Source of the DNA: an uncultured delta proteobacterium
GTDB lineage: Bacteria; Desulfobacterota; Binatia; UBA9968
Direction of reading: 5' to 3'
NCBI GenBank assembly: GCA_963755715.1
Contig: CAVWLW010000054.1
Span: forward strand, 128,001-192,000
Length of the DNA: 64,000 nucleotides
The translations under genes and the position numbers were made by a program. Positions 15,162 through 34,742 of this stretch are shown piece by piece; position 1 is the first letter of the stretch; every line of letters starts with the position of its first letter. The notes under the pieces are model-generated. The model was not told where the DNA came from. It saw only the letters and a program-made list of their open reading frames with translations, and ran no database searches.

Positions 15162-15213
15162 AGATTTAAAAAATTTAAGAAAAGCCTTCACAGGACCACA
15201 ACGCCTGCGTCTA

Positions 15214-15960: not shown

Positions 15961-15964
15961 TCGC

Positions 15965-17618: not shown

Positions 17619-18873
17619 GATCGCGTTCTCGGTCGCGGAGTCACTGGACAAAACGAATACCTTGCCCAATCCGAAAGAGAGGATGTACAACAAGCCGTCG
17701 GGTCCAACTTTGAGATCCGTGATGCCGCCAAAGCCAATCCCTAAAATAATTTCTTGAAGCTCTGCGCTGCTGTCGGCCACCCGATCCGCGAGCCCCATAG
17801 TCGTAAAGTCAAGTCCATCACGCGTCGAATTGACTTTGAAATGATAGAGGTTGCCGTTATTGATGTCGCCGGCTAAGACGTCGTTCTGGTAATCGGCGCC
17901 CAAAAGCGGCGATCTCATGAAGACGATCGCCGTCAACCCTACCGGATTGAACCATGAAAATTTGGGGTCGGCATAGTGCGAGCCGGGAAATTGAACCAGA
18001 TCGCCGGTTCCTTCCGCGTCACGGCCAACAGGGCCCATAATCCGCTCCCAGCCGCTATTAAATCCGGGCAGGACTAGATTGATCTCATCGTACCTATCCG
18101 GACCGTTTTCGGTATCCCAAAGTTCTGCCGTGAGCGGATCGAAAGCCAGGCCAAAGCTATTGCGGACTCCGTACGCATAGTACTTTGCCAGCTGGCCTCC
18201 CTGAGAAAAGAACGGATTATCCATCGGAATACTACCGTCGTCGTTGATGCGGAAGAATTACCCCGGTGTCGTCCGGGCCGGCGCCGGCGGGAAAGTTTTG
18301 TAGCTGGCCGTCGCGGTTGAGATCGCCGATGACAATATAGAGCTTGCCGTCGGGACCGAAGGTCATCGCGCCGCCATTGTGATTCGGTCCCGGTGTAACC
18401 GGCAAACTGATAATCAGCGTTGGGTTGATTAAATTGCTGCCGTTCCAGGTGTAACGAACGACACGGTTGTCTAACGGTGAACCGTTATCACTGGCACTGC
18501 TGCTTTGCGTGTAATAAAGGTAGACAAAAAAGTTTGAAGCAAAGTTGGGGTGAAGTGCGACGCCCAGCAGCCCACGTTCTGAAGCGGTGTCTACAGCAAC
18601 ATCCAGTACTTCCCCGGCTTGCAATACGCCGTTGATAACACGTCTAACCCGCCCATCTCCCTTTTGCAGAATAAGAAGATCGCCCGGTCCGATAAACACC
18701 ATGGCTGTAGGCTGACTCAATCCACCCACAACCTCGTTTACCCGAAGCGATGGATCCGTTAGCGTTTGTGCATTGGAGACAGATATAAGAAGAAAACTAA
18801 AGACCCAAAGAATTGCGAGCTCGCATAATTTGAGCTCAACCCGCCCTCTTGAGTGAAACGACAGGAGTGCCAT
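16980..18873 (-). CDS. Secreted PQQ-dependent glucose/sorbosone dehydrogenase-like propeller + C-terminal DUF4214-like module (frameshift ~18250)
   Basis: SERGLLGVALHPNF, HNGGAMTFGPDGKLY, YAYGVRNSFGLAFDP, ENGPDRYDEIN; signal-peptide-like N-terminus; two ORFs join by deleting one base. Confidence 0.85.
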
Positions 18874-19058: not shown

Positions 19059-19697
19059 TTAGAATCGAGCCTGATATTCACTAGACATCAGAAATCCGTC
19101 AATCACCGATGCGAACGGCACACCGGAGTTGAGCGCTCCAACCCACGCAGAAAACCCGCCAGGGTCGGGGTCGCGACGCAGCAGGTCGAAGTACAACAGG
19201 GACACATCCAATCGGTTCTGGCTCACACTTAGGCTCTGAAACTCCACCGAGTCCAGAAAGCTTAAAGCCACCTGCGCGCGCGTTATCTGTCCGCTATTCA
19301 ACGCGCCCACCCAAGCGTTGAGTCCCCCCGTGTCCGCCGAGCGCAGCAATACGTTCGTGTACATCTTGTCGACAAACTGCGAGTTCGTCAAATTGCTGCC
19401 GAAGTTCGACTTAAATTCACCCGAGTCTAAAAAAAACTGCACGATCTGTTCACGGGACAACCCGTCCAGCAATACCTCCAACCAAGCCCGAAAGCCGGCA
19501 TACTCAGCATCGCGAGTTAGAATCCCCAGATAGGTTCGAGCAATGAATTTGCCTTTAAAGTAGAATTCCCCGGAATCCATAAACGCCTCAACCAAGCTCG
19601 AGCTCGGAAGCCCGTTGTTCAGCGCATTGACCCAGGCCGAGGTTTCTGCAGATCCAGGCTCCCGATCCAGAAAATCCAAATACTGCTGACGAACAAA
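19059..19697 (-). repeat. Shared C-terminal DUF4214-like module, copy 2 (639 bp)
   Basis: FVRQQYLDFLDREP...EYQARF*. Confidence 0.95.
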
Positions 19698-20681
19698 AAG
19701 ACTGTTATTAGAGAGTGGTAAGTTCTGCCACCCCAAATCCGCGAACACCTCTAACGCCAACCCTACGTCCTGGGTTGCACCTGTGTAAAATGGCTCCATG
19801 AGCTCATTTGGTGCAACGGCCGTATCAAAATGTGAAACAGAAGAGCCCGGTTGCTGAGGACTCGGCGCATACATTTGCACGTGGCCGCTTGCATCAACTC
19901 CAGCTGTCAAGTGACCGCTTGCCGCCAGTACATTCGAGCCGACCCAGTGGAGATTTCCGCTATTTCGGCTCGCACTGACCCTTTCCGCGTCGGTCATCTG
20001 AGGATACAGTTTACCGGTACTATGGTTTTCCAAATGGAGCGAAAAAACATCATTCAAACCTGCCAGTTTTGTCCCAGATGCAAGATCGACAAAAGATTGG
20101 AAACCGAGTCCGTGCCCAAGTTCGTGTAAAACGACGCTCACGAAGTCCAAGCTTCCCGCAGGCGGAGCGCCGTCGAGTCCGTAATACCAAACTAACGGGA
20201 ACGAACAGGTGGTGCCTATTGCGCTGTTGAAAGTTGCCCGAATATCGCTAGTCGCGGGATCGCTGTCTATGCCGGTCAGACTATTCGCTAGCGCCTGCGG
20301 GTACCATGTGTTTGGCAACGGTGCACCGGTAAAATCCCTGTGAACCGTCCTAGTGCCCGCCGCACCAAGAGTTGCAGATGTCGCTGAACACGTTAACGGA
20401 TCGAGATTCGCGTCGATTTTAATTTCAATAGGACTCGACAAAAGACTTGCCCAAATATTAGCTGCATATTGAAATGCAATGAGCCGTTGAGCGCCTAGTG
20501 TGGCTCCGCTATTACCGCCGGAAGTGGAAGCTGCATTTGGCGGATTTGGGTCGTTGAAACCTTCGTTCGGCCCATCAACATTGACGACCGTGATAACCGC
20601 TGAATGCGCAGTTTCCGCCGTTAGCAAATCTTGGACGTAAAAACTCGAGCTTATGAGCAAGCATACGAGAACTTGCCGCAT
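19059..20681 (-). CDS. Secreted zinc metallopeptidase-like protein + C-terminal DUF4214-like module
   Basis: Signal peptide, NEGFNDP, VVLHELGHGLGF (HExxHxxG), GSSVSHFD...ELMEP. Confidence 0.85.
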   Translation of the reverse strand: MRQVLVCLLISSSFYVQDLLTAETAHSAVITVVNVDGPNEGFNDPNPPNAASTSGGNSGATLGAQRLIAFQYAANIWASLLSSPIEIKIDANLDPLTCSATSATLGAAGTRTVHRDFTGAPLPNTWYPQALANSLTGIDSDPATSDIRATFNSAIGTTCSFPLVWYYGLDGAPPAGSLDFVSVVLHELGHGLGFQSFVDLASGTKLAGLNDVFSLHLENHSTGKLYPQMTDAERVSASRNSGNLHWVGSNVLAASGHLTAGVDASGHVQMYAPSPQQPGSSVSHFDTAVAPNELMEPFYTGATQDVGLALEVFADLGWQNLPLSNNSLFVRQQYLDFLDREPGSAETSAWVNALNNGLPSSSLVEAFMDSGEFYFKGKFIARTYLGILTRDAEYAGFRAWLEVLLDGLSREQIVQFFLDSGEFKSNFGSNLTNSQFVDKMYTNVLLRSADTGGLNAWVGALNSGQITRAQVALSFLDSVEFQSLSVSQNRLDVSLLYFDLLRRDPDPGGFSAWVGALNSGVPFASVIDGFLMSSEYQARF

Positions 20682-21447: not shown

Positions 21448-22086
21448 TTACCGTTTGGCTCGATATTCGCCAGACATCAGAAAAGCATCAATTGCCATTG
21501 TGAATGGCAGGCCTGAGTTGAGAGCCTCGACCCAAGCGGAAAACCCGCCAGGGTCGGGGTCGCGTTGCAGCAGATCGAAGTACAATAGGGACACATCCAG
21601 TCGGTTCTGGCTCACACTTAGGCTCTGAAACTCCAGCGAGTCCAGAAAGCTTAAAGCCACCTGCGCGCGCGTCATCTGCCCGCTATTCAAAACTCCCACC
21701 CAAGCGTTGAGTCCCCCCATGTCCGCCGAACGCAGCAATACGTTCGCGTACATCCTGTCGACAAACTGCGAGTTCGTTAAATTGCTGCCGAACTTCGCCT
21801 TAAATTCACCCGAGTCTAAAAAAAACTGCACGATCTGTTCCCGCGACATCCCGTCCAGCAATACCTCCAACCAAGCCCGAAAGCCGGCATAGTCAGCATC
21901 CCGAGTTAGAATCCCCAGATAGGTTCGTGCAATGAATTTCCCTTGAAAGTAGAATTCCTCGGAATCCATAAACGTCTCAATCAGGTTCGCTCTCGTAAGC
22001 CCGCCGTTCAGTGCATCGACCCAGCCCGAAAAGCCTCCAGCATCCGGCTCCCGATCGAGAAAATCCAAATACTGCTGACGAACAAA
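21448..22086 (-). repeat. Shared C-terminal DUF4214-like module, copy 3 (639 bp)
   Basis: FVRQQYLDFLDREP...EYRAKR*. Confidence 0.95.
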
Positions 22087-22641
22087 AAAACTATTTGTTG
22101 TGGCTGCACTTAATGCGAAATTCGCGGTGACACTCTTTTGCGAATTCATCGTCAAAGTGCATGAACCAGTCCCGGAGCACGCGCCGGACCAACCCGCAAA
22201 GACGGAACCGGCGGCAGCCGTCGCCGTTAACGTGACATTGGAGTTGCCGGCGAGCTGAACGTTACAATTCACGGTACAGTTAATTCCCGTGGGAGAACTT
22301 GTTATCTGGCCGGCGCCTGCGCCTGCTTTGACCAAACTAAGTGTCGCTTTCGTGAAACCACAGGTTACGCTCGTATAGGGTGAAGCTCCGGCGGAGCTGA
22401 ACGCGTTCACACGGTAGCAAAAGTTTGTCGCCTCCGGTAAATTTGAGTCTACGTAGCTCGTCACATTCTCCCCAACCGCGGCGATTTGGTTAAACGGGCC
22501 CGCGGCGGAAGTTGCTCGCTCGACGTTGAAGCCGGCTTCATTCGTTGAGTTGTCCTGCCATGTAACAGTCAACGAGCTCACCGCATCGGCGGTAGATCCC
22601 CATAGCAAGACAAATAACAGTTGAAGAAAAATACGATTCAT
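21448..22641 (-). CDS. Secreted FN3 + InlB-B-repeat-like + DUF4214-like surface protein
   Basis: Signal peptide; TWQDNSTNEAGFNVER...YRVNAF (FN3); SSPTGINC...VTLTATAAAGSVFAGWSGACSGTGSC (bacterial repeat). Confidence 0.85.
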   Translation of the reverse strand: MNRIFLQLLFVLLWGSTADAVSSLTVTWQDNSTNEAGFNVERATSAAGPFNQIAAVGENVTSYVDSNLPEATNFCYRVNAFSSAGASPYTSVTCGFTKATLSLVKAGAGAGQITSSPTGINCTVNCNVQLAGNSNVTLTATAAAGSVFAGWSGACSGTGSCTLTMNSQKSVTANFALSAATTNSFFVRQQYLDFLDREPDAGGFSGWVDALNGGLTRANLIETFMDSEEFYFQGKFIARTYLGILTRDADYAGFRAWLEVLLDGMSREQIVQFFLDSGEFKAKFGSNLTNSQFVDRMYANVLLRSADMGGLNAWVGVLNSGQMTRAQVALSFLDSLEFQSLSVSQNRLDVSLLYFDLLQRDPDPGGFSAWVEALNSGLPFTMAIDAFLMSGEYRAKR

Positions 22642-22968
22642 TAAAGTTCCCGCCCTCTGACCCGGCGGTTCATTTCTATCCAAGCTCTAGAGAGTCATTC
22701 AAAATACCTCGATGGCAACAAGAAATTCGAATTCCTATATTTGAATCGAATCGGCGCACACGAATGTTAAAAACAAACTGGGCTATTCGCCCATATAGCG
22801 ACATAATCTAGAAAGGCATGCCTCGAAATGAGGCCAGAGAAAAACGCTAATGCAATCCAAAAAATCAGTGGCAGACGCTGCTAAAACCGTGACTCTGCCC
22901 GAGAAAAGAAGCCTTTGGCATAGGATCTCCAACGCTCCCATTGAGACCCTATACCGCATCCAGATTAT

Positions 22969-23055
22969 AACCTCTCTGGAACCGGCTATCAGGCTGTCGG
23001 CCTGACCCGTCGCTTTCGTCCAGCCTCATGACTAGTTTGCTTACCGAGAGAGGTT
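22969..23055 (-). ncRNA. GEMM-I riboswitch aptamer (c-di-GMP-I / c-AMP-GMP class), proximal copy
   Basis: P1 AACCTCTCT/AGAGAGGTT; AAGCAAA-CTAGTC-ATGA-GGCTGG-ACGAAAGC (P2 and junction); GGGTCAGGC...GCCTGATAGCCGG (P3). Recognised by eye. Confidence 0.75.
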
Positions 23056-23078
23056 GAGTACTAAGTGCCGTCGTTTTA

Positions 23079-23095
23079 AGCATCACATATGCCAA
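23079..23095 (-). promoter_or_regulatory. Sigma-54 -24/-12 promoter
   Basis: TTGGCATATGTGATGCT = GG-N10-GC, ~25 bp upstream of the aptamer. Confidence 0.75.
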
Positions 23096-23210
23096 AGCAA
23101 TAGAAGCGATTTTTTGATCCAGCATGGTATTACATTAGCATGCAGTGACATTATTTCGACTTGTATTTACACAATTGATCCCATCCGGAATAGACATTTT
23201 TGTGGAGCAA

Positions 23211-23232
23211 CCTGTCCCAAATTCCGGACAGG
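23211..23232. promoter_or_regulatory. Candidate enhancer (UAS) inverted repeat for a sigma-54 activator
   Basis: CCTGTCC-N8-GGACAGG (TGT-N12-ACA), ~115-135 bp upstream of the -24 element. Confidence 0.55.
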
Positions 23233-23312
23233 TGTCGTGCCTAAAGAATGGTTTTTCCTTCGCCCGTCAGAATCGAACAGAGTTTTAAGCTCATCAAAAA
23301 AACGAAGAACGG

Positions 23313-23851
23313 TCGAATCGGCGCACACGAGTGTTAAAGACAAACTGAGCCTATTGGCCCATATCACGCGACATAATCTAGCAAGGCATGCCTCGAAATG
23401 AGGCGAGAGAAAAACGCTAATGCAATCCAAAAAATCAGTGGCAGATCAGAGCTGCTAAAACCGTGACTCTGCCCGAGAAAAGATACCTTTGGCATAGGAT
23501 CTCCAACGCTCCCGTTGAGACCCTATACCGCATCCACATTACAACCTCTCTGGAGGTATCAGGTTGTCGGCCTGATCGGTCGCTTTGCGTCCAGCCTCAT
23601 GGCTAGTTTGCTTTTACCAAGAGAGGTTGAGTTCTAAGTGCGTCGTTTTAAGTATCACATATGCCAAAGCAATAGAAGCGATTTTTTGATCCAGCATGGT
23701 ATTAAATTAGCATGCAGTGACTTATTTCGACTTGTATTTATACAATTGATCCCATCCTGAATAGAATTTTTGTAAGCAACCTGTCCCAAATTCTGGAACA
23801 GGTGTCGTGCCTAAAGAATGGTTTTTCCTTCGCACGTCAGAATCGAAACAG
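23313..23851. repeat. Tandem direct repeat unit 2 (~540 bp)
   Basis: Copy of 22746-23280 with scattered substitutions and indels; ~32-bp spacer between units. Confidence 0.95.
23543..23628 (-). ncRNA. GEMM-I riboswitch aptamer, distal degenerate copy
   Basis: AAAAGCAAACTAGCC-ATGA-GGCTGGACGCAAAGC with intact P1, but the 3' side of P3 (AGCCGG) is lost. Confidence 0.6.
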
Positions 23852-24180
23852 GGTTATGCCCGCGCTTAATCATCGCAAAACGGCTGTTATCTTGTCCGTG
23901 ACAAACCACGGGATTTGATTTTTGGTAAATCGCACCAAAGACCAGTTTCTTCTTCGAGTTCGCGCAAAGCTGCACTCTCCCCTCCTTAACAAAATCGCGT
24001 GGAATCCCCAGGAGTAGCCTTGGATGGCGTGCCGATATGCCAAAATTAAACCGATTTTTTTATCTCAGAGGGGAAGCCCACCGCGACACCTGTCACAAGA
24101 TTGAACCTGACTTACTTGGGAGCCACCACAAGGCAATCTGAAACAGAGACTGGTCTTTCGATTTAAAAACGAGGAACCGA

Positions 24181-25752
24181 CTATTTTCGCAAGCAAGCGA
24201 CGTTACGCAGAGGAATCAATAACCAGCGATACCGAAGGGCCGAGCCGGTAGCGTACTTCCTCTCAAGCCGATGGGACACCATTTCCTTCATTTCCCGTGC
24301 TGTCTGAACTCCAAACTTCAGAGCGCTCATTTCCAGATATCCGGGATTATTAAAATAAACCTGAAACGCATGATCTCGGAAGCGAAGCACTTCCACCCCC
24401 GGCAGGTGTTTCGTTGGTAGAGGTAAAGTATCAACAGCATGTTGGGAGTAGCCGGACCATTTTTCCGGCAGCGGCCAGCCCTCTTTTAGCGCAAGACTAT
24501 AAAGGTGCGAACCCGGATAGGCCATGGCAGAATAGAAGTTCGCAAACTCGCAGTTCAAATCCAGGGCGAGATCCAGCGTTGCCTGCATGCTTTCCAGATT
24601 GTCCTCAGGCAATCCGAAAATATAATTGGCGATAACGTTGATTCCGGCGGCCCGAACCTTCTCAAGGGTTCGGAAAATCTCTTCTTGTCCAAACCCCTTG
24701 TCGACATCATCGCGCACGCGCTCACTGGCGGCCTCGATACCGAAGGCAAGCCAATTAAAGCCCGCGCGTTTGAGCTTGTCCAACATTTCTTCTTTCACCG
24801 TGTCCACTCGGGCGTAAGCCCAGATATTTAAGTCATAGCCGCGGTCAATGATGGCGTCGCAGATGCCGAGCACATGGCGCGGATTCAAGACAAACATCTC
24901 GTCGGCGATCTTGATGTTTCGCACGCCATACTCTTCGACCAGTTTATCTATTTGCCCAATGACAGCCTGTGGACTCCAGAATCGATAGCTGTTTACGCTT
25001 TCCTTCCAGCCCGCTACTTTTTCGCCACTTTTAAAGGGCGCTTGAATGCAGCAAAAACTGCAGTGATAGGGGCACCCAAAGGTTGTATAGAGCGACGCGT
25101 AAGGTTGGCGCTCAAGATCGCCGAAACAGTGCCAGTTATGCGCGCGATATTTTTTCATCGGCAAAAGATCCCACGCCATCTCCGGCATTTCATGATCCAG
25201 ATCCTTAACCAGTGGTGCCGCCGGGCTCGATCGAACCGCGCCGTCTTCTGTGTAGCAAAGGCCCCGGACTTTAGAATAATCAGCTCGACCAGATTTAAGA
25301 GCTTCCAAAAGCTCAAGAACAGTATATGGGCCCTCGCCGGAGCAGACAAAATCGGCAGCCTCTTCTTGCAACGTGCGCTCCGGCAGCGCTGCGACATGCC
25401 CGCCGACCATAAGCACCTTTCGCTCAGGGTTCATTTGCTTGAGCGCCGCGCAAATCGCACCTGCGGCGGTCATGTTTTGTGTTGAAGCTGACGGCTGATG
25501 GCCGTAAACGACGACTGCAGCCAGAAGCGGATTCATCTCAGCCACTCGCGTCGCTGTTGCTTCCGGGCTCAAGTCATCACCTTCCGCATCCAGCACAGCA
25601 ACGGAAAACCCGCGCCGGCGCACAAAGGTAGCCATCAAACTCGCCCAAACGGGAGGTTCAATGGCCGAGAGCGACGAACCCAACGACTGATAAATCTGCG
25701 TTCGGCTTCCGGGATGGATCAGCACCAAGTCTAGGTCGCGCTTAGAGTCCAT
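24181..25752 (-). CDS. Cobalamin-dependent radical SAM protein (class B methyltransferase-like)
   Basis: N-terminal B12-binding-like region (EPPVWA, GGHVAALP, GEGPYT), CPYHCSFC, IADEMF, FGIEAAS. Confidence 0.9.
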   Translation of the reverse strand: MDSKRDLDLVLIHPGSRTQIYQSLGSSLSAIEPPVWASLMATFVRRRGFSVAVLDAEGDDLSPEATATRVAEMNPLLAAVVVYGHQPSASTQNMTAAGAICAALKQMNPERKVLMVGGHVAALPERTLQEEAADFVCSGEGPYTVLELLEALKSGRADYSKVRGLCYTEDGAVRSSPAAPLVKDLDHEMPEMAWDLLPMKKYRAHNWHCFGDLERQPYASLYTTFGCPYHCSFCCIQAPFKSGEKVAGWKESVNSYRFWSPQAVIGQIDKLVEEYGVRNIKIADEMFVLNPRHVLGICDAIIDRGYDLNIWAYARVDTVKEEMLDKLKRAGFNWLAFGIEAASERVRDDVDKGFGQEEIFRTLEKVRAAGINVIANYIFGLPEDNLESMQATLDLALDLNCEFANFYSAMAYPGSHLYSLALKEGWPLPEKWSGYSQHAVDTLPLPTKHLPGVEVLRFRDHAFQVYFNNPGYLEMSALKFGVQTAREMKEMVSHRLERKYATGSALRYRWLLIPLRNVACLRK

Positions 25753-26956
25753 GAGATCTTTCGTTGCCGGAAAGATTATTTAAGATGCTACAAAGCCGCA
25801 AAATTTTTTCGCGTTCCAGCCCCGGATAGTTGCCAATATAAAAGCCGTAAAAATGAATATGGTTCACAGCCGGATATTTCTCAAATTCTGTCTCACCCAT
25901 GATTTTTTTTAGATACGGCTGTCGGAGCTGGTTGCCTCCCCCGGACGTACCGCGGCGAAATTCAACTCCATGTTGACTCAGAGTCTGCATTACGTTATCG
26001 CACAAGACTGGATCAGCACACTTGAGCACCAACGTAAAGGCGTAGTTGCAGCTTCCCTCAACGGCAAAGTCAGTCTGGTATTTTTCCGAGTCCAAATTTT
26101 TGAGAAACAGACGGAGATTTTCCGTCCTTAATTCATTGTTTTCGTCTAGTCGCTTTAATTGCGAGCGTCCGATCACTGCGCTGATTTCGGTGCTTCGCAT
26201 ATTGTAGCCGGGAAACGCAAAGATAAAATACGGATTGAGGTCCGGGTGCTTCTCTGAGTAGGTTTGGCGGAGTTCTGGTGATTTGGACTCGCGCACCATG
26301 CCGTGAGACCGCAGCATGCGCAGTGTTTCATAGAGTATTTGGTCATTGGTGCATATCATTCCGCCTTCGACCGTGCTCATGTGATGGGCATAATAGAAGG
26401 AAAAATTTGACATCAGTCCGAAAGTCCCGAGCTTTCGTCCCTCAAAAGTAGCGCCGTGCGACTCGCAAGCATCTTCGATCAGGGGCACCTGGCGAGCTTG
26501 GAGTTCCGCTATCAAGTGCGCGTCCAACGCATTATATCCAAGGATATGCGTAAGGAAGACCGCTTTCGTTCGTGGCGTGATTTTATTGAGCACCTGAAGA
26601 GGGTCCATCCCGAGGGTCCGTGGATTGATATCGACGAAGACGGGCTTGAAGCCGCACTGAATTACAGATGCAATGTCGGACACCCAGGTGAGCGTGGGAA
26701 CAATCACTTCGCCCAAACCATAAACTTCTCGAAGTGCTGTGATCGTTAATAGGTTCGCTGATGATCCTGAATTCACGAGGACACTGAAATCGACCCCAAG
26801 CCAACGGGACCATTCCTGCTCAAATGCTTCAACTTGACTCGACTGAGTTAGAATTGGCACCTCGGTTTGGAGGAAATCGATTACCGCCTGAGCGTCGCAT
26901 GGCAGGATGTTATTGCGCATCAGAGGCCAATCTAAATTTTCTTTTGCGCACTTCAT
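25742..26956 (-). CDS. DegT/DnrJ-family PLP enzyme, ColD-type NDP-4-keto-6-deoxysugar 3-dehydratase
   Basis: VNSGSSANLL, EDACESHGA, FSFYYAHHMSTVEGG with His at the position of the usual catalytic Lys. Confidence 0.8.
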   Translation of the reverse strand: MKCAKENLDWPLMRNNILPCDAQAVIDFLQTEVPILTQSSQVEAFEQEWSRWLGVDFSVLVNSGSSANLLTITALREVYGLGEVIVPTLTWVSDIASVIQCGFKPVFVDINPRTLGMDPLQVLNKITPRTKAVFLTHILGYNALDAHLIAELQARQVPLIEDACESHGATFEGRKLGTFGLMSNFSFYYAHHMSTVEGGMICTNDQILYETLRMLRSHGMVRESKSPELRQTYSEKHPDLNPYFIFAFPGYNMRSTEISAVIGRSQLKRLDENNELRTENLRLFLKNLDSEKYQTDFAVEGSCNYAFTLVLKCADPVLCDNVMQTLSQHGVEFRRGTSGGGNQLRQPYLKKIMGETEFEKYPAVNHIHFYGFYIGNYPGLEREKILRLCSILNNLSGNERSHGL

Positions 26957-26960
26957 GGGA

Positions 26961-28007
26961 TTAAAAAGGACCCCTAAACTGAATCTCTTGCAATTCCAAC
27001 TTTTCTTCCGGGAGCCAACCCTTCTCGTCGCCCGTGACAAGATCATAAACAGCCGCGGCAATCGTCCTCGAGTTGGGATAATAGAGATTCTCCAATGGTG
27101 GGGTCGGTGGACAAGTCACCGGTGCAAACCCCATTCGTCGAACGAGCACCGGCCTGATTCCTTGGAGCCGTTCGACGACGAGTGCGATGATTTCCGCACT
27201 GGCTCCGCAAGTAACCCAGTCATTATCGACGACGCATAATCGGCCAGTTTTTCGTACTGATTCGACTATCGTGTCAATATCCAGCGGACTTAACCAGATC
27301 GGATCAATCACCTCGGCTTGAATGTCGGCGGACTCCAGATAACTGCGCGCGCGCAGGCATTCAAGCTGCATGTGAGAAATCCCGACCAGCGTTACATCCG
27401 ATCCCGGCGCAGTGATGCGCGCTTTGCCGGGAGCAACGGTGTAGAGAGACTCCGGCACGGGGCCTTTTTGAAAATGTAAAATACGGTGTTCGACGTACAT
27501 CACGGGGTCGTTGTCGCGAATAGCTTGAACGAGACACCCTTTGGCATCGTACGGCGTCGTCGGCGCAACTACTTTTAATCCCGGCACATGCATAAAAAAA
27601 GAGTAAAGCCCCTGGGAATGCTGCGCGCCCTGGCCCCAACTTTTGCCGATCATCGAGCGAACCACCATCGGCACCTGCACCTGACCGCCGTACATATAGC
27701 GACTCTTGGCCGCGATGTTGATCAACTGGTTCATCGCCAGCATGAGAAAATCCATACGGATATGCACGTGGACCGGACGCAATCCGGCCAGAGCCGCGCC
27801 GATGGCCACACCCGTCATCGCATCCTCGGATAGCGGCGTACCGAAGACGCGCTCCGACCCGTATTTTTCCAACAGTCCGCGCGTCGTACCTTGAATCGCC
27901 TTGGGATCGTCCACGTCGAGACCAAATACGATGACCGACGGATCTCGGGCCATTTCCTGGTCGGTCGCTTCCCGGACCGCTTCGACGTAGGAGAGCTCGC
28001 GCTTCAT
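26961..28007 (-). CDS. TPP-dependent 2-oxoacid dehydrogenase E1 beta-like subunit
   Basis: TPLSEDAMTG, GLRPV, WGQGAQHSQ, PGLKVVAP. Confidence 0.9.
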   Translation of the reverse strand: MKRELSYVEAVREATDQEMARDPSVIVFGLDVDDPKAIQGTTRGLLEKYGSERVFGTPLSEDAMTGVAIGAALAGLRPVHVHIRMDFLMLAMNQLINIAAKSRYMYGGQVQVPMVVRSMIGKSWGQGAQHSQGLYSFFMHVPGLKVVAPTTPYDAKGCLVQAIRDNDPVMYVEHRILHFQKGPVPESLYTVAPGKARITAPGSDVTLVGISHMQLECLRARSYLESADIQAEVIDPIWLSPLDIDTIVESVRKTGRLCVVDNDWVTCGASAEIIALVVERLQGIRPVLVRRMGFAPVTCPPTPPLENLYYPNSRTIAAAVYDLVTGDEKGWLPEEKLELQEIQFRGPF

Positions 28008-28013
28008 ATACTC

Positions 28014-28954
28014 TCAGGCTTCAAAAACATCCGTATAGAGCTCGGCGGCTTGCGGAAACGGGCTGCGCTCGGCGAAAGCAAACGCGTCGCGTATCTCGGT
28101 TTCAACGGCCGCCTCAATTTCGCGCCGCCGTTGCGGGTCAAGGCGATCACCGAGCTGCTTAATCGGATCGGCTTTGATCCACGGTTCGGCCTCTTCGCGG
28201 CTGCGGTATCCGAGTTGGAAATCGTCGTTAGGGTCCGACGTGCTCCTTCAATCGGTAGGTTAGGCACTCAAAAAAGAATGGCCCGGGCTGCCCCGAACGA
28301 AGCCTGCCCAACCGCTTCATTCACTCTTTCATAGATGCGCACCACGTCGTTGTCCGGGATCTGTTCCGCAGGCATGCCATGGATGCGCGCTCGTTCGCAT
28401 ATATTATTGAGCTTTTGTCGCTGCAGTTGGTGGGTATGAATGGCGTATAAATTGTTCTCGCAAACAAAAATAATAGGAAGAGACTTGAGTGCAGCAAAGT
28501 TCAGACTTTCATGAAAGACGCCCTCATCGACGGCGCCGTCGCCAAAAACACTCACCACAACGGAATCTTTGCGTTGCAATTTTAGCGCATAAGCAAAGCC
28601 GACCGCCTGAGGGATGGTCGTGCCTACAACTGCGGATGCGCCCATCACTCGAGCCGCCACGTCGATCAAATGCATCGATCCGCCCTTGCCCTTGGCGCAA
28701 CCATCGAGCTTGCCGTAAAGCTCGGCGATCATTTTTTGGAGGTCACCGCCCTTGGCCAAATACAAAGCGTGACTTCTGTAAGTTCCAAAAACGACATCGT
28801 CGCGACCAAGCGCCTCGCAGACACCGACCGACACAGCCTCCTGCCCTATGGACAGATGAACGGGACTCTTGATCTTGTCCGTCGGATAAACCGCGGCGAT
28901 TTCCTCTTCGACCCGCCGGATCCGATACAGAGCTCTATAAAATCGCTCGATCAT
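28014..28954 (-). CDS. TPP-dependent E1 alpha-like subunit (two +1 frameshifts ~28305 and ~28232)
   Basis: HLSIGQEA, KGKGGSMHL, FGDGAVDEG...ENN (TPP motif); repaired C-terminus TYRLKEHVGP...AERSPFP. Confidence 0.85.
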
Positions 28955-29897
28955 CCGCTTTCCCTTTAGCATCGCCGCAGTGTTTTAGAAACCAATCATA
29001 CGTCAGCATCAGTGCTGTGCGAATAGAGGTACGCGGTTTCCAACCCATCTGCGCCAAACAGCTGGAATCCAGAAGCTTTGCCGGCATGCCGTCCGGTTTG
29101 CTTTGATCGAAGGTCAATTCGCCGGTGTAGCCTACGACGTCGCGGATCATCTCGGCGATCTCTTTAATGGACCAATCGCATCCCACACCAATGTTGATCG
29201 GCTCTTCGCCGTCGTAAACATCCATCAGAAATAAACATGCACGAGCGAGATCTTGAGAGAAGATAAATTCGCGCCGCGGCAGCCCGCTACCCCAAATTTC
29301 CACATGGGCATCGCCGCGGGTCTTTGCCTCGTGCATTCGGCGCATCAGAGCTCCGATCACGTGCGAGTCCTCAGGACTGAAATCGTCGCCCGGGCCAAAG
29401 ACGTTGGCAGGAATCGCGGTAATCATCTGCTTACCGAATTGCTGGCGGTAGGCTCGGCACAGAAAAAGGCCGGCGAGTTTGGCGACCGCGTAGGGTTCAT
29501 TCGTCGGCTCCAATTTACCGGTAGTCAGATACTCGACTTTCATCGGTTGCTCGGAAAACTTCGGGTAAATGCAGGAGCTGGCAAGATAGAGCAACTTTTG
29601 AACACCGTGGCGGTGAGCGCTGTCAAGCACGTGACAATTCACCAACAAATTGTCACGCATTAAATCCGCCGGATAGCGCCGATTGGCCGCGATGCCACCC
29701 GTCCTCCCTCCGATGAGAAACACATAACCGGGGAGGTTACGAGCAAAATACTCATCGACTTCGGCAGCATCGGCAATTTTTGGGCTGTCTTGCTCACCGA
29801 AAAGGTACTCGTAACCCGCTCGTTTGAGCTCGGCAAAAATTTCTCGTCCTACGAGGCCATCGTTGTCAGCCACGTAGATTCTTGCGCTCTTATCCAT
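28935..29897 (-). CDS. fcl: GDP-L-fucose synthase / ColC-like epimerase-reductase
   Basis: GGIAAN, LASSCIYPK, LEPTNEPYAVAK, WGSGLPRREF, KPDGMPAK. Confidence 0.85.
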   Translation of the reverse strand: MDKSARIYVADNDGLVGREIFAELKRAGYEYLFGEQDSPKIADAAEVDEYFARNLPGYVFLIGGRTGGIAANRRYPADLMRDNLLVNCHVLDSAHRHGVQKLLYLASSCIYPKFSEQPMKVEYLTTGKLEPTNEPYAVAKLAGLFLCRAYRQQFGKQMITAIPANVFGPGDDFSPEDSHVIGALMRRMHEAKTRGDAHVEIWGSGLPRREFIFSQDLARACLFLMDVYDGEEPINIGVGCDWSIKEIAEMIRDVVGYTGELTFDQSKPDGMPAKLLDSSCLAQMGWKPRTSIRTALMLTYDWFLKHCGDAKGKADDRAIL

Positions 29898-29939
29898 GCT
29901 ATGGAGCGAACAAACGGAAACCCAACCGCGATTATTTTT

Positions 29940-31034
29940 TCAACTGCCGAAGTGCGATTTGTCTCGGCGGGTCGCGTCGCTAGCCGAACCTTCATCTAAA
30001 CAGTCAAATTCCTCTGAAGCGCGTGCCATTTCCTCGGTGAAATACTCTTCCGCCGGATCAAAAAAGATAATCTGACTACCGGCAAATTCAAAACGGAACG
30101 GCACGTAGATCAGCTTCTTAAGACTTTCTCTCACTACCATTTGCTTCTCCGGGGGCACAAAAAGAAGCATAAACCCTCCGCCGCCGGCGCCCAGCAACTT
30201 ACCTCCTAAAGCGCCTTTCGCAATTGCCACTGCATAAATTTCATCAACATACGTATTGGAGACCTTGGCGCTCAAGCCGCGCTTGGCGTGCCAAGCTTCG
30301 TGCAGCAACGTGCCAAACGCGGAAATATCTTGACCGCCATTCAAAATCGCAATGCTCTCGTCAACCAAGTCTTTCATGATACGCAACTGGCTCTTCTTTC
30401 CATTCAAGTCGGTAATATAACTTTCGGCAATATCGGACGCTGTACGCTCGATCCCCGAGTAAAAAAGCATAAGATGCGAATTGAGTTCTTTCAGCCGGTC
30501 GGCCGAGACGGTAACGGGTCGCACAGAGATTTCTCCATTCTGGGCAAAGACGACATGATTAAATCCGCCGAATGCCGCCAGCACCTGATCCTGCGACCCC
30601 ACGGTTTCTTTGATCAACTCTTGTTCAATGCGGATGCTCTCCAAAGCCAGTTGCCGCTTGCTGGGCATCTGGCCTTGCAAGGCGTAGAGGGCATGAAGCA
30701 ATCCCACTGTGAATGAAGAGCTGGATCCCATTCCGCTGCGCGCCGGAAGATCGCCGTCATGATGAATCTCCATGCCGCGTTCGATGCCCGAAAAACGCAG
30801 GACCTCGCGAACCGCGGGATGAACGATGTCATCGACACTTCGACAATTTTCAATACGAGAATAAACAAGGCGAATTCGATGCTTGAAAAAGGGCGGCAGA
30901 TATCGACAGGTAAGATAACAATATTTGTCGATGGTCGTACCGAGCACCGTACCGCCATGATCGCGGTACCATATGGGATAATCGGTGCCGCCGCCAAAGA
31001 ACGATATACGAAAGGGCGTTCGACTAATGACCAT
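29940..31034 (-). CDS. hddA: D-glycero-alpha-D-manno-heptose-7-phosphate kinase (GHMP)
   Basis: RTPFRISFFGGGTD, PARSGMGSSS, GSQDQ, KLLGAGGGGF. Confidence 0.88.
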   Translation of the reverse strand: MVISRTPFRISFFGGGTDYPIWYRDHGGTVLGTTIDKYCYLTCRYLPPFFKHRIRLVYSRIENCRSVDDIVHPAVREVLRFSGIERGMEIHHDGDLPARSGMGSSSSFTVGLLHALYALQGQMPSKRQLALESIRIEQELIKETVGSQDQVLAAFGGFNHVVFAQNGEISVRPVTVSADRLKELNSHLMLFYSGIERTASDIAESYITDLNGKKSQLRIMKDLVDESIAILNGGQDISAFGTLLHEAWHAKRGLSAKVSNTYVDEIYAVAIAKGALGGKLLGAGGGGFMLLFVPPEKQMVVRESLKKLIYVPFRFEFAGSQIIFFDPAEEYFTEEMARASEEFDCLDEGSASDATRRDKSHFGS

Positions 31035-32303
31035 GGATGATCGTCCTTTCTGCTCCCATTAGGCACCCAATGGAAGCAGTCGCTGCAGCCAAATCATCGA
31101 CGACAAAATCAGCCGCCACGGCGTTTTCAAATTGCGCGCCATAGCCTGTGCGCACGAGAAAGGTCATAGCACCCGCTCTTCGGCCCATGTCGATGTCACA
31201 ATCCTTATCGCCAATCACAATGCTGCCCTCTAGATCAAAGTCCAGTTCTTTGGCCGCTTTTTCCATTAGACCCGTCCCGGGCTTGCGACAGGCGCAAACG
31301 TCGTCGGGCGTGTGAGGGCAAACGTAGATTCCATCAAGCTTAACATTCTCTTGCTGTAACAACTGGGCAAGACGCTCATGAACGAGACCTAGTTGGGCCT
31401 GATCAAAGTACCCACGCCCGATCCCCGATTGGTTCGTAATCATCACCAGACCGAAGCCCATTTGGTGCAGCTTACGAAGCGCAGCTCCAGCTCCTGGAAT
31501 CAATGCAACCTGCTCGGGCTGTGAGAGATATTCGCGTTCCTCAATAATGGTCCCGTCCCGATCAAGAACGACAAATCGGCGTCGCGCTGAGCCATTGAGT
31601 CCAGCAAAAAAACTTTCCGCCAGCGGCAAAGTCATCGGGCGTTCCGATATCGAGAAAAGGGCCGGCACTTACGTAACCGTAAAGACCGCGACCCATCCAG
31701 CGCGGGAAAACCTCGCGTTCCAGGGAGACGTTCACACCATCCGGAATAGATCGAAGCACCTCTTGGCTCAAGAAATATATTCCTGCATTGATCCAAGCCG
31801 CCCCCGAACCCTGTTGCTTTTCAACGAATTCAATAACGCGCGCGTCGGAATCAAGCTTGACGCGACCAAATCTTTCGCTGCGCGCGACCCGTGTCAATGC
31901 CATACTTGCCGTTGCTTGGCGCTGGCGATGCCAATCCCAATAAGCTTTGATGTCGATCGCGCAGAATGAATCGCCGTTCATCACCAGCACAGGATCGGAC
32001 TCAAACCGAGTGATTGCCAACTTCAATGCGCCCGCCGTGCCAAGCGGTTCTTGCTCTCGTGAATAGATAAGCCGGAGCGGTCCGTGGTTTTCCCCGAAGG
32101 TGCTTTCGATCTGGTCCCCTAAGTATCCGGTGCACAATACCACAGATCGACAGCCCGCTGCAGCGACCTGATCCAACAAATAGGTAAGAAACGGCTGCGA
32201 CCGAATCTCCGCGAGCACTTTGGGACGATCCGCGACAACCGAACGCAGACGCGTGCCGAGCCCGCCCGCCAGTAAAGCTACCGACACATTCGAAAGTTCC
32301 ATC
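31024..32303 (-). CDS. Probable HddC nucleotidyltransferase-GmhB phosphatase fusion (frameshift ~31622)
   Basis: LAGGLGTRL...PKVLA, FLDIGTPDD (HddC) continues into LDRDGTI, TNQSGIGRG, CPH..CACRKP, GDKDCD (GmhB) after removal of one G. Confidence 0.8.
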
Positions 32304-32343
32304 GGCAATGTGACTTTTTGACCATGGCAGACACGCAACAGCG

Positions 32344-33282
32344 TTAAGCGTTCTTGAACGGTCCGCATCCGATCATGCGGTAGCCTTTCAATAATTCTTG
32401 AATTCCCTCTTCCAGCGAGCGTCTCGCCTCAAATCCCGCTTCCCGCAAGCGCTGGTTGGACACGATATAATTACGTTTGTCCGGATCTGAGCCGACCTCG
32501 GAAAAATGGACGAAAAAATTGGGCACGAATTCTTTAATTTTTAGCGCAAGCTCTTCTTTGGAGAGGTTGGCGGCGTCAAGACCGACGTTATAAGGTCTGC
32601 CTGTCATTTGTTTGGAATTCTCCATGCAATGAACAAAACAATCGGCGACATCGCGGATATGAATGTAATTTCGCTTGAAGTCTTTCTCAAAAATCACGAT
32701 ATATCCGTCGGTCACCGCGGTATAGACAAAGTGGTTCACTAAAAGATCGAGTCGCATGCGTGGCGACATGCCGAAGACTGTGGCGAGCCGCAGCGTAACC
32801 GTATTCGGGCTCTCTAACAATTCTTGCTCCGCTTGAGATTTCGTTTGGCCGTACAGCGATATCGGCTCTAAAGGCGTTTCCTCGGTACAGAAAACGTCGC
32901 CGGTTTGAGTGCCATAGCCGCTGTTGGTTGTCGGATATACCACAAGCTGTCGAGGACTGCGCACTCTGTTTATAAGTCGAATTGCGTCCAAATTAACTGA
33001 CCGCGCGAACGCTGGGTCGCGGTCACACGCCGGCGCCCCCACGACTGCAGCCAGGGGAACCACCACATCGGCTTGAGCAATCAACCGTTGCATCAGTTGC
33101 TCGTCGCGCGCGTCTCCGTAAAAGAAATCAAAGCGAGGATTCGCGCATAGGTGAAAAAGGCTGTTTTGCCGATAAATCAAACTGTCGACGACAGTGACGT
33201 GCGATCCCATCTCAAGCAGCCGATCGCATAGGACCGACCCCAGATAACCCGCTCCTCCAGTGACGAGCACCCGCGTAATCAT
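32344..33282 (-). CDS. NAD-dependent sugar-nucleotide epimerase/dehydratase (extended SDR)
   Basis: VTGGAGYLG, YGQTK, RLATVFGMSPRMRLDLLVN. Confidence 0.88.
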   Translation of the reverse strand: MITRVLVTGGAGYLGSVLCDRLLEMGSHVTVVDSLIYRQNSLFHLCANPRFDFFYGDARDEQLMQRLIAQADVVVPLAAVVGAPACDRDPAFARSVNLDAIRLINRVRSPRQLVVYPTTNSGYGTQTGDVFCTEETPLEPISLYGQTKSQAEQELLESPNTVTLRLATVFGMSPRMRLDLLVNHFVYTAVTDGYIVIFEKDFKRNYIHIRDVADCFVHCMENSKQMTGRPYNVGLDAANLSKEELALKIKEFVPNFFVHFSEVGSDPDKRNYIVSNQRLREAGFEARRSLEEGIQELLKGYRMIGCGPFKNA

Positions 33283-33787
33283 AATAGAGTCAAAATCAGA
33301 CTAATAACCACAACATCTATAACATACAAGAAAATCGAGCGTAGGGTGGAGAAGCCAGAAAAGTGTTAGCATCGTCGGGAGGAAAACCGCTGGTACTAAG
33401 AGCAACTGCACGAGATTTGAAAAGAACCGATGTAATGAAGAGGAATACTCGAATCGGCAGCTAACCTTTCTTATAAGATTACCCTTATTGATGAGTGCCG
33501 GGTAGGCATCGGTAACCCTGCTGCAAAGAAGGTCCACGTTTCGAATTCCGACCAAAAGAAACATATGCGAAAATCGAATATGTTGGGCGCATGTCATGCC
33601 AAGAATATTGGTCTATCGAGGTTGGCAATGACGTAATCAGGTGTATATTGACGCGTTGCTGAGTGAAAGAGACTGCCCTGGCTTAAAATTTTTGCGGATT
33701 TCTCATTGGGGACTATCTTTCACTCAATAAAACAAGTATGCCTTTTCTTTAGCATAACCTGCTGCAGTTCGTCTAGCGACGACGTCA

Positions 33788-34742
33788 TTGGGAGCTACGT
33801 CTATGAACATCTCGTTGCGTTTCACGATTATCATCCCGACAAAAAATCGACGCCAAATACTAGGGCAACTCTTGGGCAGTATCGGTGCGCTTAATGATAT
33901 AGACAGGATTCTTCCGGAAATTATCGTGGCCGATAATAACTCGGATGACGATACTTGGGAATGCGTCAACTCGATGGCAAAACATTTTCCAACGACGCTC
34001 CGGAGCTTAAAGATCGTACGGGCGGGAAAGTCTGCAGCTATTAATGAAGCCGTAAAAACATCGACAGGTAACGTTCTCGCATTTTTAGATGACGACGTGG
34101 TCGTTGAGAAGGCTTGGCTGGTTGCGGTTAGAGAGTTTTTTCAAGAGGATAATCGTCAGGTCGGGCAGGGATTCATCGGGCTTCAATCGACTCCCAACGA
34201 TCCAGAAATCTTAAAATTAGTAGAAATTTATCGCACGATTCCTAGACTCGAGTACAATCCGAACGTCGGAAACACTGCATTCATTGAACGGCGCTAATTT
34301 TTTCATGTCTCGGGAGCTTTTCAATCGGGTGGGGGGCTTTGACGAGCGGCTCGGCCCAGGGGCTTCAGGCACATCGGAGGATGTTGACCTCGCCCGGCGG
34401 CTGATTCGCTCTGGGGTTTCTATCAGCTACGCGCCCAAAGCTGTGGTTTATCATCGCATCGATCGCGACCGGCTGACCGAAGCGTACTTTAAGCAGAGTC
34501 ATCGGCGCCAAGGGGTGAGCCGATTCTTGATCCGAAAACAAGGTGGGGCAGAAATACTCTTTAATCTCTTGCGGGTTGCCACCCAGTACGGCTATTACAC
34601 GTTGCTTGGACAGGAGCGAAACCGCTACCGCAGCAAAGGGCGGATTTATCATTACTTAGGTATGATCGAAGCCAAGAAAAATGATTCTACGCTAGCTGGC
34701 ACAAAAGAAGACTTGCGGACTCGGTCTCCTCACCTCACTTAA
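33788..34742 (+). CDS. Glycosyltransferase family 2 (frameshift ~34268)
   Basis: IIIPTKNR, ADNNSDDDT, FLDDD; second part GANF, GGFDERLGPG, EDVDL. True start probably ATG 33803. Confidence 0.85.

Follow-up and report, generated by a model that had tools for sequence, protein, structure and literature searches.

An operon predicted to build a 3-deoxy, two-carbon-extended sugar from GDP-heptose in an uncultured Binatia bacterium

What sugar is made by an operon in which genes for activating a heptose stand beside a thiamine enzyme of the pyruvate dehydrogenase (PDH) type and a radical enzyme? The question is raised by nine genes on the minus strand, at 24181-33282, of a 64,000-nucleotide stretch of DNA from an uncultured delta proteobacterium of the Binatia (assembly GCA_963755715.1, contig CAVWLW010000054.1, positions 128,001 to 192,000 of the forward strand), called the window here. 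The source assembly holds 7.4 Mb in 76 contigs and is 93.6% complete; its contig C54 carries the window. The tailoring of nucleotide sugars is well mapped for hexoses and, through work on Campylobacter, for heptoses, and to our knowledge no described pathway combines a guanosine diphosphate (GDP)-linked heptose with both a thiamine enzyme of the PDH type and a radical S-adenosylmethionine (SAM) enzyme bearing a B12 domain. The nine genes probably make up a single operon for the synthesis and remodelling of a GDP-linked heptose destined for a surface polysaccharide. As judged from the predicted enzymes, the most likely product is a 3-deoxy, two-carbon-extended cell-surface sugar derived from an activated seven-carbon sugar, perhaps caryose.

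The operon and its proposed pathway

An earlier note, made from the sequence alone, had named a set of tightly coupled genes and proposed that they make a branched, deoxygenated, C-methylated sugar from GDP-heptose. All the genes that it named are present, and Pfam and NCBIfam profile searches and PDB sequence searches assign them as nine coding regions. Adjacent pairs overlap by 11-38 nt or leave gaps of 4-42 nt (the HddC/GmhB overlap is described with the frame breaks below).

32344-33282, minus strand: NAD-dependent short-chain dehydrogenase/reductase (SDR), predicted Cj1427-like GDP-heptose C4-dehydrogenase (Pfam Epimerase 4.5e-30; PDB 6VO6/6VO8, E 1.8e-107)
31562-32368, minus strand: HddC-like sugar-1-phosphate guanylyltransferase (NTP-transferase; Pfam NTP_transferase 1.4e-29; NCBIfam)
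31024-31668, minus strand: GmhB-like heptose-1,7-bisphosphate 7-phosphatase (HAD-IIIA; Pfam Hydrolase_like; NCBIfam)
29940-31034, minus strand: HddA-like GHMP kinase, predicted heptose-7-phosphate 1-kinase (Pfam GHMP_kinases_N and GHMP_kinases_C; NCBIfam)
28935-29897, minus strand: Fcl/ColC-like epimerase-reductase (E. coli GDP-fucose synthetase 1BSV, E 3e-83)
28014-28972, minus strand: PDH-type E1 alpha, the thiamine diphosphate (ThDP)-binding subunit, broken in the assembly (Pfam E1_dh 3.9e-51; NCBIfam)
26961-28007, minus strand: PDH-type E1 beta (Pfam Transket_pyr and Transketolase_C; PDB 3DUF_B, PDH E1 beta, E 2.8e-62)
25742-26956, minus strand: DegT-family enzyme, predicted ColD/E1-type pyridoxamine phosphate (PMP)-dependent sugar 3-dehydratase (ColD 2GMS, E 3e-50)
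24181-25752, minus strand: B12-binding and radical SAM enzyme of an uncharacterised family (Pfam B12-binding, PF02310, 1.1e-14; Radical_SAM, PF04055, 1.3e-20)

This set goes beyond chance, because its order is repeated in dozens of unrelated genomes. A scan of the radical SAM protein against one genome per species gave at least 564 relatives, and the best 80, which were taken first, are 58-80% identical and come from many phyla (Binatia, Myxococcota, Planctomycetota, Cyanobacteriota, Chloroflexota, Nitrospirota, Omnitrophota, Poribacteria, Verrucomicrobiota and Acidobacteriota); the enzyme also occurs in many Pseudomonadota. Searching with the nine window proteins by tblastn revealed the same genes around the relatives, often in the same order. 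A second version of the cassette, found in many Pseudomonadota, Nitrospira and Chlorobiaceae, is headed by a sister radical SAM family that is 41-43% identical to that of the window. The constancy of the cassette can be read from the 76 full-flank loci, defined as those in which 10 kb of flanking sequence is complete on each side of the radical SAM gene:

Window-type radical SAM, 25 full-flank loci: ThDP enzyme 24, His-type dehydratase 25, HddA-like 22, SDR 19, Fcl-like 20
Sister-type radical SAM, 51 full-flank loci: ThDP enzyme 51, His-type dehydratase 51, HddA-like 50, SDR 47, Fcl-like 36
Both types pooled: ThDP enzyme 75/76, His-type dehydratase 76/76, HddA-like 72/76

Within the window's genus, the radical SAM enzyme is present in 5 of 24 other genomes, and in two other families of the order in 0 of 16; such patchiness within the genus is that of a serotype-type locus. 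The whole set is found in a cultured organism, Solidesulfovibrio magneticus RS-1, whose plasmid pDMC1 adds lhgO (L-2-hydroxyglutarate oxidase) and a SIS gene to it. Other named carriers are Gemmata sp. IIL30, Floridaenema fluviatile, Tumidithrix elongata, Methylomonas, Methylobacter tundripaludum, Azonexus hydrophilus and Piscinibacter defluvii. Plasmid p5 of Azospirillum argentinense Az39 bears a variant locus with the radical SAM enzyme, SDR, kinase, a split transketolase, a 'cobalamin-dependent protein' and a SAM methyltransferase; insertion sequences lie around it, and it may represent a cassette that is rearranged or mobile. A literature search found no paper describing the cassette, most subscription journals being outside its coverage.

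By homology to characterised enzymes, the pathway would start from a GDP-linked heptose. HddA is the best NCBIfam match of the GHMP kinase (147.8 bits, cut-off 600). The HddC-like enzyme reaches 129.6 bits on NF049965 (HddC; cut-off 300) and is matched better by a mannose-1-phosphate guanylyltransferase model (187 bits), likewise below cut-off. The GmhB-like phosphatase scores 176.8 bits on NF006506 (cut-off 178) and 130.6 on TIGR00213 (cut-off 149.6), and exceeds the cut-off of the HAD-IIIA subfamily model TIGR01662 with 119.7 bits. As the earlier note had remarked, the window has no gmhA; SIS_2 matches occur elsewhere in the genome, one over the cut-off at C64:30827-31228 and a broken one on C68. 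In a cyanobacterial and a Chloroflexota locus (L011 and L055), GmhA-like SIS_2 genes stand within the cassette itself. The presence of a kinase, a bisphosphate-type phosphatase and a nucleotidyltransferase, together with the SIS gene inside relatives' cassettes, supports the GDP-heptose start that had been proposed. A small NUDIX hydrolase gene, absent from the window, sits beside the HddA-like kinase in L011 (cyanobacterial, 4091-4567), L209 (15494-15973) and L207 (16735-17373), and the NUDIX-bearing loci include those of S. magneticus RS-1 pDMC1 and Azospirillum lipoferum 4B p6.

The match of the SDR to 6VO6/6VO8 extends over residues 3-311, and the next-best PDB entries follow at ~1e-20 to 3e-20. 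These two entries, titled only 'putative sugar-nucleotide epimerase/dehydratase', we take to be Campylobacter jejuni Cj1427; a text search gave no confirmation. The SDR is predicted to be a Cj1427-like C4-dehydrogenase that keeps the C6 hydroxyl, not a generic dehydratase, and by this homology it would oxidise C4 while its bound NADH is recycled with 2-oxoglutarate. One study reports that Cj1427 requires alpha-ketoglutarate and yields L-2-hydroxyglutarate (PMC10680097). The lhgO gene in the pDMC1 cassette lends this recycling indirect support; the window holds no lhgO.

The DegT-family enzyme would then strip the C3 hydroxyl, giving GDP-3-deoxy-4-keto-heptose. When it is aligned to ColD, the window segment FSFYYAHHMSTVEGG stands opposite ColD FSSFYSHHIATMEGG (FSFYYAHH versus FSSFYSHH), and the first His of the window motif is the residue changed in the ColD mutant entry 3B8X (SNH; His-to-Asn). 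It also matches the CDP-hexulose 3-dehydrase 3BCX (E 8e-33). The His in place of Lys had been read correctly in the earlier note: among the 64 DegT-family homologues from the first 80 radical SAM loci, 63 have His at the lysine position, and the sole Lys-bearing match lies outside the cassette. This retention supports the proposed C3 deoxygenation by a His-type, ColD/E1-like enzyme. Its score on the RfbH model NF011936 is 199.8 bits against a cut-off of 423. Because the RfbH equivalog cut-off is missed, the enzyme, which is predicted to work like ColD or the dehydratase E1, appears to represent a separate dehydratase subfamily.

The next step would use the E1 alpha and beta subunits, an orphan pair that would decarboxylate pyruvate and place the two-carbon unit on the C4 ketone, yielding a 4-C-acetyl tertiary alcohol of nine carbons. 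This assignment draws on published genetic precedents, the AviB and Pau pairs discussed below, and on strict synteny. The ThDP motif of E1 alpha (GDG...NN) is intact. Both subunits fall below the cut-offs of PDH families (TIGR03182, PDH E1 alpha, 237 bits versus 394; NF006667, PDH E1 beta, 278 versus 321). The absence of E2 and E3 that had been noticed at first reading holds among the window open reading frames (ORFs) scanned, and the 2-oxoacid_dh (E2) matches of the genome lie only on C30, C74 and C6, with none on C54. Two other E1 beta paralogues of the genome, on C74 and C6, are within ~2 kb of an E2. In a quick maximum-likelihood tree of 67 E1 beta sequences, in which several outgroup branches are long, the 61 cassette-linked sequences (60 loci and the window) form one clade with an approximate likelihood-ratio support (SH-aLRT) of 99, and the genome's six other paralogues lie outside it. 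The earlier note had suggested asking whether the pair groups with catabolic enzymes; E1 beta falls in a clade of cassette members only, apart from the genome's other paralogues. The gene order Fcl-like, E1 alpha, E1 beta, ColD-like is kept in dozens of genomes. The cassette-only clade and the lack of an E2 on the contig support an orphan pair whose substrate would be a keto-sugar and which would not serve a dehydrogenase complex. C4 oxidation is favoured by homology to characterised enzymes, and the addition of two carbons from pyruvate by precedent and synteny. In the sister cassette, a split transketolase-type ThDP enzyme takes the position of the E1 pair. This exchange suggests that function, not lineage, is conserved at this position.

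The Fcl-like enzyme scores 384.7 bits on the NCBIfam Fcl model (cut-off 500). Aligned to 1BSV, it retains the E. coli residues of positions 107, 109, 136, 140 and 179, which we take to be the reductase triad and the epimerase acid/base pair. With these residues it could invert C5 and reduce a ketone, and it would contribute C5 epimerisation, a final keto-reduction or both.

The radical SAM step and the candidate product

The reaction of the radical SAM enzyme decides which sugar emerges. The B12-binding domain and CxxxCxxC core of class B architecture are present; the earlier note had named a B12 radical SAM enzyme. All 21 NCBIfam matches are below their cut-offs, the best being HpnJ (163 bits, cut-off 578) followed by BchE (147 bits), and methylase families give 46-88 bits. 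The best PDB match is the diol-dehydratase AprD4 (6FD2, E 4e-17). Across 154 family sequences of both types, 109 alignment columns are at least 97% identical, and C227, C231 and C234 of the CxxxCxxC motif are the only invariant cysteines. At least three reactions are candidates: ring closure, methylation and dehydration. The enzyme would rework the intermediate by hydrogen abstraction; ranked by likelihood, C7-C8 ring closure to a cyclopentane-fused, caryose-type nonose comes first and C-methylation second.

Caryose is a 4,8-cyclo-3,9-dideoxy-nonose that forms, as a (1->7)-linked homopolymer, the O-chain (caryan) of Pseudomonas/Burkholderia caryophylli, now Trinickia caryophylli (PMC9092360). 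The same review calls its biosynthesis unknown and groups it with the cyclopentane products ascribed to HpnJ and calditol synthase (PMC9092360). That the cassette is a pathway for caryose-type carbocyclic nonoses is a possibility that we put forward tentatively. An HpnJ/BchE-like radical SAM enzyme would abstract hydrogen from C7 and close the C7-C8 bond, which would fuse a cyclopentane to the pyranose. The enzyme set fits caryose atom by atom in the following mapping, which we infer:

Nine carbons: seven would come from the heptose and two from pyruvate
3-Deoxy position: would be made by the ColD-type enzyme
C9 methyl: would be the methyl of pyruvate
Quaternary C4-C8 bond: would arise by ThDP addition to the 4-ketone
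C7-C8 bond: would arise by ring closure, possibly via hydrogen abstraction at C7
C2 and C6 configuration: as in D-glycero-D-manno-heptose
Inverted C5: would be within reach of an Fcl-type epimerase

The genus of the caryose producer was examined in 33 Trinickia-genus genomes, reached via a recA primer pattern that matches a named Trinickia record. The sister-type radical SAM enzyme is present in five of the 33 (E ~1e-122 to 1e-125), a result for the genus and not for T. caryophylli itself; weaker matches in most Trinickia genomes are ~28% identical and may be HpnJ. The five loci share the order radical SAM, HddA-like, Fcl-like, split transketolase, His-type dehydratase, HddC-like, SDR. This variant differs from the window in its split transketolase-type enzyme, and its radical SAM protein is only 41-43% identical to the window's. 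The split transketolase was identified by Pfam only in one genome, G239, and by tblastn matches to its halves in the other four, and the FSFYYAHH motif was checked in G239. Four of the five carriers are metagenome-assembled genomes (MAGs) with other names. G239, a complete 4.29-Mb chromosome, has Wzm and Wzt after the SDR and an acyltransferase next door, and it is the sole genome of the 33 with, in addition, an RfbH-type dehydrase that scores above its family's cut-off, at 754 bits. That second locus (L382, G239:C1:1359200-1379199) holds the RfbH-type 3-dehydrase, a CDP-glucose-4,6-dehydratase-like SDR, a YerE-like ThDP enzyme, a family 2 glycosyltransferase (GT2) and an ABC-2 permease. Two such homopolymers are reported from T. 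caryophylli, and the two branched-sugar O-chain loci predicted in G239 are suggestive of what is expected of a producer of caryan and caryophyllan. The link between cassette and caryose is likewise suggestive, by gene content, and applies to the genus rather than to T. caryophylli. A scan with the back-translated ColD motif did not bring up T. caryophylli among the matches listed. In the family of one 'Burkholderiaceae' MAG, which is not the family of T. caryophylli, a match was found in 2 of 232 genomes.

Bradyrhizose, a ten-carbon, bicyclic, carbocycle-fused O-antigen sugar of Bradyrhizobium, was also considered as a product and set aside, as no connection to the cassette could be made. The portion of the bradyrhizose locus paper that could be consulted names a dTDP-glucose 4,6-dehydratase cluster and lists no other genes (PMC4743980). 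The sister cassette was seen in Bradyrhizobium records L345, L347 and L350 and in Rhizobium sp. Leaf262.

A somewhat unlikely alternative is that the radical SAM enzyme is a cobalamin-dependent C-methyltransferase, which would make the product a ten-carbon, 3-deoxy, C2-branched, C-methylated heptose derivative without ring closure. A B12-binding domain with a radical SAM core is typical of class B, many of whose members are methylases; weak NCBIfam matches to P- and C-methyltransferases (Sden_1168 88, Mmp10-type 88, PhpK 80 and HpnR 80 bits) and TsrM as the third PDB match (E 3e-9) point the same way, as do the further 'cobalamin-dependent protein' and SAM methyltransferase of the A. argentinense variant. 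However, no methylase family reaches its cut-off, the best families, HpnJ and BchE, are not methylases, and the best PDB match is a diol-dehydratase. The 'C-methylated' of the earlier note does not find support in the form in which it was stated. We also know of no bacterial sugar with a ten-carbon, C2-branched, C-methylated pattern and a 3-deoxy group.

The AprD4 match raises a further alternative, in which an AprD4-like radical diol-dehydratase would act on the exocyclic C6-C7 diol and the thiamine enzyme would extend the chain at the new carbonyl in the manner of DXS, giving a linear deoxy-nonose. AprD4 is the best PDB sequence match and the NCBIfam model rSAM_AprD4 gives 84.6 bits; E1, transketolase-type enzymes and DXS belong to one superfamily, and Pfam DXP_synthase_N weakly matches E1 alpha and a Trinickia transketolase half. 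Yet the AprD4 score is far under its cut-off of 500 and below those of HpnJ and BchE, the family has no conserved cysteines beyond CxxxCxxC, and the strictly co-occurring C4-dehydrogenase and 3-dehydratase would be left without a reason for the 4-ketone. This route is improbable.

Several observations weigh against the pathway of C4 oxidation, C3 deoxygenation, two-carbon addition and ring closure. HddA, HddC and Fcl are below NCBIfam equivalog cut-offs, so that we infer the identity of the substrate. The Fcl-like enzyme keeps the full set of reductase and epimerase residues and might reduce the C4 ketone, in competition with the C2 addition, which makes the order of steps uncertain; it is also the least constant member, with no gene at 20 of the 76 full-flank loci. 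One full-flank locus, L072, has no ThDP enzyme. A plasmid of A. lipoferum 4B carries the radical SAM enzyme, kinase and Fcl-like gene with no E1 or ColD match within 29 kb. Finally, in the sequence as assembled, frame breaks interrupt E1 alpha and the HddC/GmhB junction.

Frame breaks and the surroundings of the operon

E1 alpha carries two single extra bases, at ~28305-28307 and ~28231-28234. Its ORF ends after 234 residues, the Pfam E1_dh match spans only profile positions 4-212 of 300, and the C-terminal third lies in two other frames, first as a GPFFFECLTYRLKEHVGP segment and then as NDDFQLGYRSREEAEPW..., up to a TGA at 28014-28016. Intact homologues in L002, L004, L011 and L015 are encoded by one ORF of 315-320 aa. 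The HddC and GmhB ORFs overlap by 107 nt in different frames; only reading through an extra base at 31622/31623 would join them into a single protein. In the closest relative, L002, a single fused HddC-GmhB ORF of 431 residues is collinear with the fused reading of the window; other relatives have two genes. The HddC-like gene is probably the N-terminal half of an HddC-GmhB fusion. The 'HddC-GmhB' of the earlier note stands as regards the two predicted activities, and as one protein only once the extra base is removed.

Logan contigs from four soil metagenome runs, each from a different study, were compared with the window over 27900-31800. The base at 28231/28234, at 28305/28307 and at 31622/31623 is missing in each case in all four runs; leaving out the three bases gives an unbroken E1 alpha and an in-frame HddC-GmhB fusion. 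In three of the four runs, two bases fewer were also seen at 28011-28012, in a short, non-coding TA repeat that separates the E1 alpha stop from the E1 beta start. The same 64 kb contains at least four further split genes, among them housekeeping trpC and glucose/sorbosone dehydrogenase (GSDH), GT2 and NTP-transferase genes. Because the breaks are absent from the other metagenome runs and the window has further split genes, the three operon frame breaks are most likely single-base errors of assembly, and the operon is probably functional in the organism. Slippage at a run of seven T (31606-31612) had been a candidate for the HddC/GmhB break and was set aside, as the metagenome contigs place the base at 31622/31623.

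It is correspondingly improbable that the extra bases are real and that the operon is decaying, with E1 alpha and HddC/GmhB turned into pseudogenes and no special sugar made. The breaks are present in the assembly as given, and the patchiness in the genus (5/24) is as for a dispensable serotype locus. Against this stand the near-identical contigs from four independent metagenomes that lack all three bases, the fully conserved peptide that the out-of-frame segments still encode, and the other split genes, which point to systematic indel errors. Least probable by far is an ordinary catabolic role for the E1 pair, as a component of a pyruvate or acetoin dehydrogenase that just happens to be encoded within a sugar operon: the pair's nearest named families are indeed PDH E1 alpha and beta (PDB E 3e-62), but both family scores miss their cut-offs, no E2 accompanies it on the contig whereas the C74 and C6 paralogues have one nearby, its beta subunit belongs to a clade of only cassette-linked sequences from many phyla, and the pair is held between Fcl-like and ColD-like genes in dozens of genomes. 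Genome annotation should avoid the label pyruvate dehydrogenase for 'E1 alpha/beta' pairs found in clusters of this kind.

If the predicted heptose-derived sugar is made, the neighbouring multi-domain glycosyltransferases and ABC-2 transporter would polymerise and export it. The genes concerned are:

15965-16732, minus strand: Wzm-like ABC-2 permease (Pfam ABC2_membrane 1.8e-19)
15214-15981, minus strand: ABC transporter ATPase paired with the Wzm-like permease (Pfam ABC_tran 6e-21)
11280-15341, minus strand: 1353-aa multi-domain glycosyltransferase, WbsX + GT4 + GT2 (Glyco_tran_WbsX 4.9e-134, Glycos_transf_1 2.2e-24, Glycos_transf_2 2.2e-27)

The ABC-2 pair at 15214-16732 probably exports the glycan; what ties it to the sugar operon is position. 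The 1353-aa glycosyltransferase is a candidate polymerase for a presumed substrate. Methyltransf_24-glycosyltransferase proteins can cap or terminate chains in ABC-transporter-dependent O-antigen systems, and this glycan region encodes, at 6572-8809, a 745-aa protein in which Methyltransf_24 is fused to a GT4-type glycosyltransferase. Between the sugar operon and the ABC-2 exporter are three adjacent proteins with four DUF4214 repeats each (16980-18224, 19059-20681 and 21448-22683), which could be secreted or glycosylated surface proteins.

The regions with split genes are 16980-18873, 33788-34742, 41250-42054, 46510-47371 and 58408-59521. The GSDH gene has an in-frame TAA near 18227, the GT2 and NTP-transferase genes each lie in two frames, trpC is frameshifted, and an oligopeptidase-F-like gene may also be split. 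A scan of 22500-34000 for promoters and terminators gave nothing usable, with 17 promoter-like sites where 9.5 +/- 3.1 were expected and 19 terminator-like sites where 13.5 +/- 4.1 were expected.

Comparison with known pathways

New here are the finding that the frame breaks are not shared by other metagenomes, the count of the dehydratase His, the E1 beta tree that includes the genome's other paralogues, the replacement of the E1 pair by a transketolase-type enzyme in sister cassettes, and the mapping onto caryose with the Trinickia-genus result. Because the gene set is strongly conserved across many phyla, its predicted sugar may be a common part of environmental cell surfaces, and it could be sought in the cultured carriers S. 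magneticus RS-1, Methylomonas, Methylobacter tundripaludum, Gemmata sp. and Floridaenema fluviatile. The biosynthesis of caryose has been an open question since the 1990s, for which the cassette offers a concrete candidate. If that reading is true, soil and water bacteria of many phyla would commonly carry carbocycle-fused sugars, which have so far been known from a single plant pathogen, and radical SAM cyclases would gain their first member that acts on a nucleotide sugar.

The colitose pathway shares two of its steps with the window. ColD is a PMP dehydratase with His for Lys, as predicted for the window enzyme (2GMS), and the ColC step has its likeness in the Fcl-like epimerase/reductase, which retains the catalytic residues of E. 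coli GDP-fucose synthetase. Unlike the colitose pathway, the window has a C4-dehydrogenase and not a 4,6-dehydratase, so that the substrate would retain the C6 hydroxyl and C7, and two additional carbon-carbon and radical enzymes intervene.

The capsular GDP-heptose pathways of C. jejuni, which include C4-reductases, use the activation module GmhA/HddA/GmhB/HddC, for which the window has HddA-, GmhB- and HddC-like candidates; a pyridoxal phosphate (PLP)- or PMP-dependent 3-dehydratase, an Fcl-family enzyme and an SDR, Cj1427-like in the window, are present in both. The C. jejuni pathways end at seven carbons and have neither thiamine nor radical SAM enzymes; the window has both. According to the published study, Cj1427 together with the PLP-dependent C3-dehydratase of serotype HS:5 converts GDP-manno-heptose in vitro to GDP-D-glycero-3-deoxy-4-keto-heptose, and the product of this enzyme pair is the intermediate proposed here (PMC10680097). 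In the same study, 3-deoxy D-glycero-heptoses arise in C. jejuni only by mixing enzymes in vitro (PMC10680097), whereas in the window both genes co-occur naturally.

For the two-carbon branch, the yersiniose A pathway (RfbH/E1 3-dehydrase, YerE ThDP carboligase and YerF reductase, with the relatives ErwE, MMAR_2332 and MyGE) follows the same logic: a ThDP enzyme puts an acyl anion on C4 of a 3-deoxy-4-keto sugar nucleotide, and a reduction follows (PMC9306805). YerE and its relatives are there enzymes of the same chemistry and of a different protein family (PMC9306805). YerE-type enzymes are single-chain and acetolactate-synthase-like (TPP_enzyme_N/M/C, as seen in L382), in contrast to the two-subunit PDH-E1 type of the window; the yersiniose substrate is a CDP-3,6-dideoxyhexose rather than a GDP-heptose, and the window adds a radical SAM step. 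YerE, cited as precedent in the earlier note, serves as a functional analogue from another thiamine-enzyme family, and AviB1/AviB2 and Pau11/Pau12 are closer. These PDH-like pairs are described as a route to C4 two-carbon branches, in avilamycin eurekanate and in paulomycose, and as in the window they are orphan E1 alpha and beta genes in sugar clusters that lack E2 and E3 (PMC4425429). The likeness is drawn from their description, and they belong to actinomycete antibiotic pathways that use dTDP-hexose-derived or already attached sugars; heptose, ColD and radical SAM partners, which the window has, are absent from them.

The closest precedents for the radical step are HpnJ (hopanoid cyclitol ether), BchE and calditol synthase, which have a B12-binding-like N-terminal domain and a radical SAM core, as does the window enzyme. 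HpnJ and calditol synthase are described as converting sugars to cyclopentane carbocycles (PMC9092360). The window enzyme is not an HpnJ member, because its score is far below the family cut-off, and its substrate would be a nucleotide sugar. Caryan itself is a homopolymer O-chain, and in the window as in the Trinickia-genus cassette the sugar genes adjoin an ABC-2 exporter.

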